NCBI GenBank assembly: GCA_965662335.1
Contig: CBFIGQ010000045.1
Span: forward strand, 1,156 to 65,155
From: Minisyncoccia bacterium
GTDB lineage: Bacteria; Patescibacteriota; Minisyncoccia; Phycocordibacterales; UBA9973
Length of the DNA: 64,000 nt
Reading direction: 5' to 3'
Positions 8,583-10,803 of this stretch are shown here, one piece after another. The first letter of the stretch is position 1. Each line of letters starts with the position of its first letter. Below the pieces are notes generated by a model. The model had not been told where the DNA came from. It saw nothing but the letters and a program-made list of their open reading frames with translations, and ran no database searches. Position numbers and translations under genes: made by a program.

Positions 8583-9962
8583 TTATGTATTCTTTATTCT
8601 CAATTCAGCTAATTTAAAATAGTCTTTATCTAGTTCGGTTCCCAAATATTTTCTATTTAATTTTTTTGCGACAACAGCTGTTGTTCCAGACCCCAAAAAT
8701 GGATCAAACACTATTCCATTCTTCTTAGATGTTGCTAGGATAATTCTTTCCAAAAGCCATTCTGGTTTTTGTGTTGGGTGTATCCTTTTTCTGCCAGCTG
8801 TTTTACCTTTTGCCCAAATAGAGCGCATTTGTTTGCCTCCATTAATTTTTTTCATATCTTCATAATTAAAGATATTGCCTTTGTCTTTTCTTGCCCATAA
8901 GAAATTTTCATGATCTGCAACAAATCTTGTACAAGATAAATTCGGTGTGGCATCAGTTTTATGCCAAAGTATTTCGTTTAATATCTCAAATCCAATTTTT
9001 TCTAGTAAATAACCGGTCAAATGTATGTTGTGATATGTGCCGGCAACCCAAATTGAGCCCGTTTTTTTTAATATTCTAAAAGATTCTCTAAGCCAATTTT
9101 CTGTGAATTTCTCAAAATCATCTTTTTCCATTTTGTCCCAATATCCTTTGTCTGTATTAAGATCTTTACCACCTGTTTTTGAAAATTTCATTTTAAAACT
9201 TTTCTTACTTAAATTATATGGAGGGTCAGCAAAAATTAAATCTATAGAATTGTCTTTCAGTCCTCGCATAAATTCTAAACAATCCATATTGTAAATTTTA
9301 TTTAATTCAAAATCTTGTTTTTCAAAAGGAGCTTCTTCTCTTGAATTTTTTGGCAAAACTAAACTAGATTGTTCAAGATTGCGAACAATTTTAACTACAA
9401 CACCCCTGACTTCTACTTCATTTCTATAAATCGGGAAAAGTGTAGGATTTGCTGGCTGTAATCTTATTCTATTTTTCTCTCGATAAATTTTCTTTAAGGT
9501 TGCAAGGTTATCATCAATAATTGCTACGATGGTTTGCCCGTCATCAGCAAATTCTTGTTTGCGAATTATTACTGTGTCGCCGTTAAAAATCCCTTCGTCA
9601 ATCATGCTGTCTCCAGCAACTTTTAGAGCATAGTGCTTTTCTGTGTTTTCAATTTCGTGACTTAGTACTGAAACACTCTCATTGCCAATTTCTAGCGCTT
9701 CTATTGGCTGTCCTGCCGCTATAACTCCAACAATAGGTATTTCAATGAGTTTCTCTGTTTTATTTAACTCAATACCCCTTGGTTTGTTTTTAGACTTATT
9801 TAAATAACCCTTTTTCTTTAACGCATCAATGTGTTGGTGTACTGTTGATTCAGATGATAGTTTGAAATGTTTTTTAATTTCTTTCAAGGAGGGAGCAAAT
9901 TCATTTTTTAACTCATATTTTGATATGAAATCTAAAATTTGTTTTTGGCGTTTCGTTATCAT
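8583..9962 (-). CDS. LexA repressor (wHTH + S24 autopeptidase) fused to a beta-class DNA amino-methyltransferase
   Basis: N-terminal ~215 aa is LexA: winged HTH, cleavage-site Ala-Gly in VIAAGQP, Ser in AGDSM, Lys in ATLKKI. C-terminal ~245 aa has DPPYN...HPTQKP...DPFLGSGTT. Single uninterrupted ORF. Track start GTG 10013; ATG at 9962 (MITKRQKQ) preferred. Confidence 0.8.
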   Translation of the reverse strand: MITKRQKQILDFISKYELKNEFAPSLKEIKKHFKLSSESTVHQHIDALKKKGYLNKSKNKPRGIELNKTEKLIEIPIVGVIAAGQPIEALEIGNESVSVLSHEIENTEKHYALKVAGDSMIDEGIFNGDTVIIRKQEFADDGQTIVAIIDDNLATLKKIYREKNRIRLQPANPTLFPIYRNEVEVRGVVVKIVRNLEQSSLVLPKNSREEAPFEKQDFELNKIYNMDCLEFMRGLKDNSIDLIFADPPYNLSKKSFKMKFSKTGGKDLNTDKGYWDKMEKDDFEKFTENWLRESFRILKKTGSIWVAGTYHNIHLTGYLLEKIGFEILNEILWHKTDATPNLSCTRFVADHENFLWARKDKGNIFNYEDMKKINGGKQMRSIWAKGKTAGRKRIHPTQKPEWLLERIILATSKKNGIVFDPFLGSGTTAVVAKKLNRKYLGTELDKDYFKLAELRIKNT

Positions 9963-9963
9963 G

Positions 9964-9980
9964 TATGATATTATATCATA
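9964..9980. promoter_or_regulatory. perfect 8-1-8 palindrome TATGATAT-T-ATATCATA, candidate operator for the LexA-MTase fusion
   Basis: Read directly. Lies 2 bp upstream of and abutting the ATG of the fusion gene, and inside the 76-bp divergent intergenic region shared with ORF 10039. Confidence 0.45.
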
Positions 9981-10038
9981 GTAATACCGAAACAAAACCG
10001 AAAAGTTATCCACATGTAAACATAGTAATAAAATTGCA

Positions 10039-10803
10039 ATGAAATTTTTATTTTTAGATGAATTTAAATATGATCACTCTAAAACTCATAAAGTATATGG
10101 TCTGACGGGTGTTGTTATAGATGCACAATATTATCTGTCGTTTAAAGAATCGTTTTCTTCATCTCTTAAAAAATTAGGATGGGACAAGAAACTCGAACTT
10201 AAAGGAAGGTCAATGTTTTCGGCTTCCGGCGACAAGTCTATCTCTGTAGAAAAGAGAGTAAATTTTATGTCTGATGTTGTTGGAATGTCTAAATCAAACT
10301 CTGGAAAAACAGCGAAGATTCATGTTTTTGTTGCGTTGGAAATGTACGAAAAGAAACATACGGAGTATGAGTGCTACAAGAAAAACCTTGAAAAGATCAT
10401 TAAAAAATTACCAAAGGCTCAATCAAAAAAGAAAAGTTTGATTGGGATATTCTACGATGAAAATGATTGTATTGATGCGAGTGATTTCCAGCAAACCATC
10501 GAAAAATTACTTTCTCAAAGATCTTTAAATTTATTTGAATCACCTCTGCCAGTAAGATCTTCTTTAGATAATCCAGGAATCATGTTTGCAGATTATGTCT
10601 GCTATTTTAATCAGAATTTCTTTCAATTATCTAATTTTCGAAAAAATATAAGTGATGAACTTATGATCCTATTGGAAAAGGATGAAAAAAATATTATCAG
10701 TGAAGATGAGAAGAAAAAACTTAGTACTTATATAACAAACTATAGAAAAGAGAGGAAAACAAAAGAACTCATTCTCGCGTTAAAAAAGATAATGTTTGTT
10801 TAA
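10039..10803 (+). CDS. hypothetical protein (possibly DUF3800-like), divergent from the LexA-MTase gene
   Basis: N-terminal FLFLDEF resembles the DUF3800 DE motif. AT-rich like the rest of the cargo. Confidence 0.3.
   Translation: MKFLFLDEFKYDHSKTHKVYGLTGVVIDAQYYLSFKESFSSSLKKLGWDKKLELKGRSMFSASGDKSISVEKRVNFMSDVVGMSKSNSGKTAKIHVFVALEMYEKKHTEYECYKKNLEKIIKKLPKAQSKKKSLIGIFYDENDCIDASDFQQTIEKLLSQRSLNLFESPLPVRSSLDNPGIMFADYVCYFNQNFFQLSNFRKNISDELMILLEKDEKNIISEDEKKKLSTYITNYRKERKTKELILALKKIMFV

Follow-up and report, generated by a model that had tools for sequence, protein, structure and literature searches.

A perfect palindrome at a lexA-methyltransferase start codon reads as a likely core promoter beside a candidate direct-repeat operator for the fused LexA

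The stretch of DNA analysed here, 64 kb of contig CBFIGQ010000045.1 from a Minisyncoccia bacterium, carries a restriction-modification cassette in which the gene lexA-M1 encodes a LexA module fused to a methyltransferase. This whole stretch is called the window below, and all window-wide counts and scans refer to it. The lexA-M1 gene is followed by a second methyltransferase gene, M2, which faces the gene of a putative restriction endonuclease, R, itself preceded by a small controller (C) gene. On its other side, lexA-M1 is separated from a divergent open reading frame (ORF), ORF 10039-10803, by a spacer that measures 76 bp (9963-10038), as the initial annotation had given it. Within this spacer, bases 9964-9980 read TATGATATTATATCATA, an 8-1-8 inverted repeat without mismatch that is present just as that annotation had claimed. 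The symmetry stops at 17 bp, at the flanking G9963 and G9981, and a single base separates the palindrome from the start codon of lexA-M1 (CAT on the plus strand), so that palindrome and start together read TATGATATAATATCATA-C-ATG on the gene strand. The coordinates of these and the other features of the locus are collected in Table 1.

Table 1. Features of the lexA-M1 promoter region and of the surrounding cassette; aa, amino acids
Feature	Position	Strand	Basis or remarks
Perfect 8-1-8 palindrome TATGATAT-T-ATATCATA	9964..9980	none	Direct reading of bases; arm pairing compared in relatives
Extended -10 element TGATATAAT of the lexA-M1/M2 operon promoter	9970..9978	minus	Perfect TGNTATAAT; best-conserved stretch in the 8-locus promoter alignment
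Mirror extended -10-like element TGATATTAT	9966..9974	plus	Base reading; promoter scan lists TATTAT with TG upstream
ATG start codon of lexA-M1	9960..9962	minus	7 nt past the -10 hexamer; more than 100 homologous N-termini
Candidate LexA operator TTTTCGGT-TTTG-TTTCGGT-AT	9984..10004	minus	Position weight matrix, recurrence at lexA promoters, helix covariation
DnaA-box-like 9-mer TTATCCACA, perfect	10006..10014	plus	Directly upstream of the direct repeat
lexA-M1 fusion, 459 aa	8583..9962	minus	LexA DNA-binding domain aa 2-63, Peptidase_S24 aa 76-190, N6_N4 methyltransferase aa 240-453
M2, second methyltransferase (N6_N4_Mtase)	7830..8576	minus	6 nt downstream of lexA-M1; presumably same operon
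Divergent ORF, 254 aa	10039..10803	plus	ORF listing, Pfam; no confident family
R, putative restriction endonuclease, 431 aa	6533..7828	plus	No Pfam match; convergent with M2
C (controller) protein, HTH_3	6165..6386	plus	E 3.7e-15; also in L163, L165
Half-site ATATCATA overlapping -10-like TATCAT (6150-6155) of the C-gene promoter	6149..6156	plus	Promoter scan TTGGAA-17-TATCAT

The initial annotation had described the lexA-M1 product as a fused LexA domain and methyltransferase, and the comparison bears this out, since the protein is apparently a complete, cleavable LexA joined to the methyltransferase. The three domains are recognised by Pfam with E-values of 2e-16 (PF01726), 3e-26 (PF00717) and 9e-56 (N6_N4 methyltransferase, PF01555), and residues 2-195 align end to end with solved LexA proteins (Thermotoga 3k2z, E 7e-34; E. 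coli LexA, E ~1e-21). The N-terminal 200 residues hold the winged-helix and S24 domains together with the Ala-Gly cleavage site and the Ser/Lys dyad of a LexA repressor. Specifically, A83-G84, S119 and K157 align with A84-G85, S119 and K156 of E. coli LexA; in an alignment of 84 full-length fusions conservation of A83-G84 is 90% or more, and S119 and K157 do not vary. The same 200 residues are 55-65% identical to standalone Patescibacteria LexA proteins of 196-207 residues.

To place the promoter in context, the upstream regions of fusion and LexA genes were compared across genome, metagenome and viral-contig collections. The scans, dominated by matches to unfused methyltransferases, gave at least eight full-length fusion loci from genomes and at least four from metagenomes, the viral scan with a single protein gave no match, and one locus (L169), whose contig lacks upstream DNA, was left out of the upstream comparison. 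The order lexA-M1 / M2 / convergent R is kept in those relatives whose contigs reach downstream, and an ORF of 429-435 aa is maintained at the position of R. We also note a fusion-gene copy 99% identical to that of the window, inside which the contig of L002 begins (JADZEV010000012.1, Candidatus Nomurabacteria isolate SJ839).

Of the four perfect extended -10 elements in the window, the palindrome contains one, read on the gene strand. With the start codon only 7 nt past the -10 hexamer there is no room for a Shine-Dalgarno sequence, and a leaderless lexA-M1 mRNA beginning at 9962/9963 is predicted; the arrangement TGnTATAAT with a start codon 6-8 nt on and no Shine-Dalgarno sequence is that of extended -10 leaderless promoters. 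The start codon is itself well placed, as the N-terminus M[IL]TKRQKQ falls at the position of this ATG in more than 100 homologues. These N-termini rule out an upstream GTG (10013), which would have put the palindrome inside the coding sequence.

The comparison of relatives separates the two halves of the palindrome. The element TGATATAAT and its 6-7 nt spacing are kept at fusion-protein identities of 95, 86, 85, 83, 75 and 33%, and likewise in a LexA-methyltransferase fusion of another class (L010). The distance from -10 to start codon stays at 6-7 nt in 10 loci, and one locus (L081) has the hexamer variant TACAAT. The right arm of the palindrome, on the other hand, is the variable stretch between the -10 element and the start codon, reading ATCATA in the window, ATCACA in L161, ACTAGT in L162, ACCAGA in L163, AACAAA in L166 and GACTTA in L081. 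Accordingly, arm pairing at the homologous position falls from 8/8 in the window to 7/8 in the closest relative, L161, with its 95% identical fusion protein, to 4-6/8 at 83-86% identity and to 2-5/8 in remoter relatives. We consider it likely that the palindrome is the core promoter of lexA-M1/M2 and not a repressor site, the fused LexA most probably binding the direct repeat next to it. Taken by itself, the palindrome shows the anatomy of an ordinary, possibly bidirectional promoter.

The counts agree that the palindrome is notable solely through its position within the 76-bp promoter spacer. Region 6000-10800 holds one perfect palindrome whose arms measure 8 or more with a gap no longer than 3, where first-order Markov simulations give a mean of 1.18 and 62% of them contain at least one; by rough scaling, about 0.02 would be expected inside the spacer. 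The full 17-mer occurs once in the window. Allowing up to three mismatches gives four matches against 0.23 expected, two of which are the palindrome itself, once per strand, while one further match (63952-63968) overlaps another TGATATAAT. Neither an extra copy with up to two mismatches nor a recognisable SOS gene was found in the 64 kb. The half-site ATATCATA occurs six times against 2.55 expected, a number reached by 5 of 100 shuffles and so not significant. TATAAT-based palindromes are also seen at L030 (-39..-20 before the lexA ATG) and at L001 (-45..-34 before the ATG), reading TATAATATAGATATATTATA and CTATTATAATAG; their arms are unrelated in sequence, which fits -10 symmetry rather than a common operator.

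The symmetry has a simple reading of its own. TATAAT is nearly self-complementary, and with a TG on the opposite strand it yields a second extended -10 pointing away from lexA-M1. The mirrored hexamers overlap (9975..9970 on the minus strand, 9969-9974 on the plus strand), the -11A of each pairs with the -7T of the other, and the predicted starts, ~9963 (minus) and ~9980/9981 (plus), lie 18 bp apart; together the two mirrored elements account for 13 of the 17 bp. Among symmetric bidirectional promoters of bacteria, for which an enrichment on plasmid DNA is reported, an 18-bp start spacing with reciprocal -11A/-7T pairing is the commonest configuration (PMC10268837), and the geometry found here is the same. 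The palindrome is thus possibly a symmetric promoter, potentially bidirectional, and as judged from its bases a candidate for transcription toward ORF 10039-10803. By eye, the mirror TG is retained in three of eight independent lineages (window/L161, L163 and L166), all of which have a close divergent gene, and a different one in each case: DUF3800-like or unknown, DUF3644 and SpoU. ORF 10039-10803 itself is common only to the window and L161, where it was read from the DNA, while the other relatives have unrelated divergent genes; Pfam assigns it to no confident family, and its likeness to the DUF3800 neighbour of L166 is only faint. The initial annotation had suggested that the divergent gene may be co-regulated; as a conserved trait this finds no support, the neighbour varying among relatives (DUF3800, DUF3644, SpoU).

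A better candidate for the LexA operator lies 6 bp upstream of the palindrome, still within the interval marked in the initial annotation. Here, at 10004..9986 on the minus strand, the direct repeat TTTTCGGT-N4-TTTCGGT forms TTCGG-N6-TTCGG with an 11-bp period, and it spans about -42 to -22 relative to the predicted start, that is, the -35 and spacer region. The repeat recurs at some 40 promoters of Patescibacteria lexA or lexA-methyltransferase genes, where it sits just upstream of the -10 element, abuts or overlaps it, covers the -35 region or, in some clades, lies just downstream. Among them are standalone LexA genes of 197-207 aa (L019, L030, L185 and L188), which carry the same TTCGG-N6-TTCGG abutting TATAAT or at most 1-2 nt away.

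A position weight matrix (PWM) derived from 18 other loci, the window not among them, gives the direct repeat of the window 29.5 bits, the best in 64 kb by 12 bits. The runner-up and sole other match above 15 bits, at 51049-51069 (17.4 bits), is set down to chance, being intragenic in a membrane-protein/transporter ORF that encodes LFGYLFGYLF, a peptide whose repetition produces the repeat in the DNA. In 258 kb of flanks of related loci, the matches of at least 20 bits all fall at lexA promoters, as do nearly all above 17 bits; a match in L008 (92-109, 19.4 bits) was rejected, its context not being promoter-like. The motif that is present at lexA promoters across the lineage and overlaps the core promoter is thus the direct repeat.

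The direct repeat is further supported by its covariation with the recognition helix of LexA. All 24 loci with a helix of the form ST[V/I]x[Q/E/K/G] have a repeat unit with a TTCGG core, and the TTTC[T/G]AT repeat occurs in none of them. Ten loci have the helix STA[H/S][F/Y] instead, and carry either TTTCTAT (L001, L007, L011, L013, L167 and L175) or, past the -10 element and on the other strand, TTTCGAT/A (L082, L170, L179 and L186). The helix SIPTI[H/S][E/Q]H goes with TTTAGGT at two loci (L172 and L173) and SVSTIHYH with TTTCGAA at one (L174). Counted as five helix classes and five repeat-unit classes, the two agree across 37 loci, the two large classes showing no exception between them, and the period of the repeat is 11 bp in every helix class. 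The window helix, S37-H44, corresponds to S39-H46 of E. coli LexA in an ungapped alignment, and the residues that vary align with N41, A43 and E45 in helix 3 of that protein; N41 and E45 reportedly contact bases in the LexA-DNA structure 3JSO. This is the pattern expected of a protein and its own operator.

The LexA of the fusion gene thus very probably has an operator within the 76-bp spacer, overlapping its own promoter, and the direct repeat at 9984-10004 is the probable candidate for it. Of the autoregulation through the spacer that the initial annotation had put forward, the location of the operator stands, and the element changes from the palindrome to the direct repeat.

Directly upstream of the direct repeat lies the DnaA-box-like 9-mer, a perfect match to TTATCCACA at a position that is conserved in orthologous promoters. 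In either orientation, a perfect match is present at 13 of 27 related promoters against 1.2% of control windows, and a match with at most one mismatch at 20 of the 27 against 4.8%. A second perfect TTATCCACA in the window, at 15330, is intragenic and was set aside. The recurrence of the site near lexA promoters suggests a second, replication-linked input.

What remains to be weighed is how far the palindrome could serve another function. As the dyad-symmetric operator of the fused LexA, it would be bound by a dimer over the start codon that represses the operon and perhaps the divergent gene. A perfect dyad of fitting length in a LexA-family promoter invites this view, as does the binding of palindromes by many LexA proteins (PMC8565304), and the 7/8 pairs kept by the closest relative are in its favour. 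Fusions 83-86% identical to that of the window, with near-identical helices (SESTVHQH or SESTIHQH), nonetheless have the unrelated right arms given above for L162, L163 and L166. An operator for that shared helix should have been kept in these three loci, and it was not. Other lexA promoters have nothing like this palindrome and all carry the direct repeat, no second copy exists in the 64 kb, and the conserved half of the palindrome is explained by TGnTATAAT. The proposal of the initial annotation, that the palindrome is the cognate operator, is for these reasons improbable: it bears no resemblance to the motif of some 40 related lexA promoters and is not conserved at orthologous ones, its right arm being lost already at 83-86% identity.

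Closer to the promoter reading is a one-way -10 region without a functional divergent promoter, whose symmetry arose by chance around the nearly self-complementary TATAAT in AT-rich DNA. Some 1.2 such palindromes are expected by chance within the 4.8-kb low-GC island, 3 of the 8 arm pairs come from TATAATA alone, the symmetry is quickly lost among relatives, and ORF 10039 has a -10-like TAAAAT of its own at 10029-10034. We nevertheless regard this as unlikely, though it is the strongest of the alternatives, since the mirror TG is retained in three lineages with a closely spaced divergent gene and the geometry exactly fits the preferred 18-bp bidirectional arrangement. Still less credit than to the LexA dyad is given to binding by another factor, such as the C protein or a host regulator, or to a recognition site of the restriction-modification system that would feed methylation back on the promoter. 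C-controlled and methylation-sensitive promoters do occur in restriction-modification systems, but nothing at 9960-10040 corresponds to the block found at the C gene, TTGGAATATAACACAA[A/C]GGAATA, and the right arm is unconserved even though relatives keep the M1, M2 and R genes and presumably the same specificity. A role in RNA, either as a terminator or as a hairpin in the divergent transcript, is effectively refuted. A plus-strand transcript of the palindrome could self-pair, yet it folds at -7.0 kcal/mol where shuffles give -6.9 (z = -0.04), its stem consists of A/U only, a T-tract is absent, the terminator scan is empty here, and on the gene strand the predicted start lies downstream of the palindrome.

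Several points weigh against the palindrome being the core promoter with the operator beside it. The -35 region is poor, so that promoter strength would rest on the extended -10 element alone. The perfect symmetry, at about 0.02 expected by rough scaling, may reflect lineage-specific selection, whether for divergent transcription or a local factor, and the closest relative retains 7/8 pairs, though shared ancestry predicts likewise. The direct repeat may differ from the experimentally validated Patescibacteria LexA motif (Sanchez-Osuna et al. 2017), and the covariation counts over 37 loci disregard shared ancestry. For this organism, we infer transcription starts, binding and cleavage from sequence.

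The half-site ATATCATA does recur at 6149-6156 in front of the C gene, where it had been read as a weak operator by which the fused LexA might control the C-R operon. This reading was rejected: besides its lack of enrichment, the half-site aligns with the -10 element CTATAATA of L163 and L165 and overlaps the predicted -10 of the C gene, and the PWM scan of the window found no LexA-type direct repeat near the C-R operon. An upstream block at 6127-6149, TTGGAATATAACACAA[A/C]GGAATA, is invariant in the window, L163 and L165 except for its A/C position, includes a GGAATA direct repeat and is likely, on this comparison, to be the C-box; it is absent from 9960-10040, so the palindrome has no C-box similarity. 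The C and endonuclease genes, which abut in L163 and L165, are about 145 bp apart in the window (6387-6532), and this gap holds a short ORF that by eye resembles the N-terminus of the endonuclease.

The cassette and the divergent ORF form a low-GC island, with 27-33% G+C (~6000-10800) against 45-50% around it, which is consistent with horizontal acquisition; no convincing att-like direct repeats were found bounding it. Near the cassette, a gene for a serine recombinase on the minus strand (4177-5763) overlaps the 3' end of a tRNA-Glu (4166-4238) and is flanked by 119-nt inverted repeats, 93% complementary, at 4235-4353 and 5819-5937. This module (4166-5937) could be invertible or integrative. 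Just past the island on its other side, the GC-rich stretch 10800-11250 has ORFs overlapping on both strands and no Rfam match at the gathering threshold, and is possibly non-coding or degenerate.

The observed motifs, their conservation and the helix covariation can be joined into a scheme in which transcription starts, binding, cleavage and physiological purpose are inferred. RNA polymerase would use the extended -10 element and start at or beside the A of the ATG. The fusion protein would dimerise through its S24 domain, bind the direct repeat where it covers the -35 region and the spacer, and repress lexA-M1 and M2. On DNA damage, self-cleavage at Ala83-Gly84 stimulated by RecA would detach the DNA-binding domain and methyltransferase expression would rise, the extra methylation perhaps shielding unmethylated DNA from repair synthesis against the cognate endonuclease. 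The window itself contains no recA-like Walker A motif, no recA and no second lexA. Since the operator is of the same type as that of standalone LexA, cross-talk with the SOS repressor of the host is possible.

The LexA-methyltransferase arrangement extends beyond the class of the window. Of the matches to LexA only, most were in fact ORFs of 507-627 aa in which LexA is joined to a methyltransferase of another class, namely C5-cytosine (PF00145; L011, L012 and L014), Dam-like D12 (PF02086; L017) or an architecture of 623-627 aa with a partial PF01555 match only (L009 and L010). Together with the full PF01555 class, the LexA module is thus fused to at least four unrelated methyltransferase classes, and PF02384 on a LexA fragment (P0222) hints at a fifth. 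One version, L173, lacks the S24 domain. The closest LexA of standalone length, P0127 (196 aa, 65% identical to the LexA module of the window), is the first gene of an operon in L175 (10001-12981; also in L176) with the order lexA / N6_N4 methyltransferase / HinfI-type endonuclease, in whose promoter region TTTCTAT direct repeats and a TGTGGATAA box occur and the ATG stands 6 nt past TATAAT, as in leaderless promoters.

These loci tentatively suggest that, in bacteria of the candidate phyla radiation, a complete cleavable LexA serves as a portable controller of restriction-modification methyltransferases, with a co-evolved direct-repeat operator and usually a DnaA-box-like site. If this is true, DNA damage, and possibly replication status, would raise methylation, giving Type II systems a damage-inducible protection that is the counterpart of restriction alleviation. 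The fused LexA suggests a route by which the methyltransferase of a mobile restriction-modification cassette could be linked to the DNA-damage signal of its host. The helix classes would then provide natural LexA helix/operator variant pairs for studying the evolution of repressor specificity, and the question arises why a DnaA-box-like site accompanies these promoters. The fusion proteins are already annotated as LexA in databases; in the literature searched, whose coverage is incomplete, we found no description of the fusions or of the arrangement. Assigning the palindrome to the promoter corrects a tempting misassignment, and the surrounding locus is the more informative part.

Compared with known LexA sites, the palindrome shares with canonical SOS boxes (E. 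coli CTGT-N8-ACAG; others in PMC8565304) dyad symmetry at a lexA-family promoter, but it shows no similarity to them in sequence, is not conserved in orthologous promoters and occurs only once in the window. The direct repeat is closer to the Alphaproteobacterial LexA box, GTTC-N7-GTTC, which is likewise a direct repeat with an 11-bp period (PMC8565304). The two share this period and a TTC core, and L005 reads exactly GTTCGGTAAATGTTCGG; the unit in the window family is longer (TTTCGG[T/G]) and its proteins are of Patescibacteria lineages. A passage of PMC7739468 cites a Patescibacteria study among cases of LexA evolving direct-repeat recognition, and the direct-repeat motif of Patescibacteria LexA described there (Sanchez-Osuna, Barbe and Erill 2017, Environ Microbiol 19:3465; cited in PMC7739468, PMC8565304) may be that of the window. 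Unlike the standalone proteins, the LexA of the window forms a single polypeptide with a restriction-modification methyltransferase, and its gene lies in a low-GC mobile island. With symmetric bidirectional promoters (Warman et al. 2021; PMC10268837, PMC12825309), the palindrome shares mirrored overlapping -10 elements, -11A/-7T pairing, the 18-bp spacing, divergent genes on either side and a setting in AT-rich, horizontally acquired DNA. It differs in its extended -10 TG on both strands and in one transcript being leaderless, the starts in the window being predicted only.

The cassette also resembles two kinds of self-regulating restriction-modification systems. With those of C.PvuII, C.AhdI and C.Esp1396I it shares a small HTH_3 protein encoded upstream of the endonuclease, a repeat block and a -10 element near the ATG, but the C-box-like block of the window is at 6127-6149, off the palindrome, and control by C concerns the C-R operon and not lexA-M1. 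In the SsoII, EcoRII and MspI type, methyltransferases with an N-terminal helix-turn-helix repress their own promoter. The fusion of the window has the same plan, with an N-terminal DNA-binding domain and a site for it in the methyltransferase promoter of a restriction-modification cassette. It differs in that a separate C protein is present and that the N-terminal module is a whole LexA, whose self-cleaving S24 domain would add DNA damage as an input.

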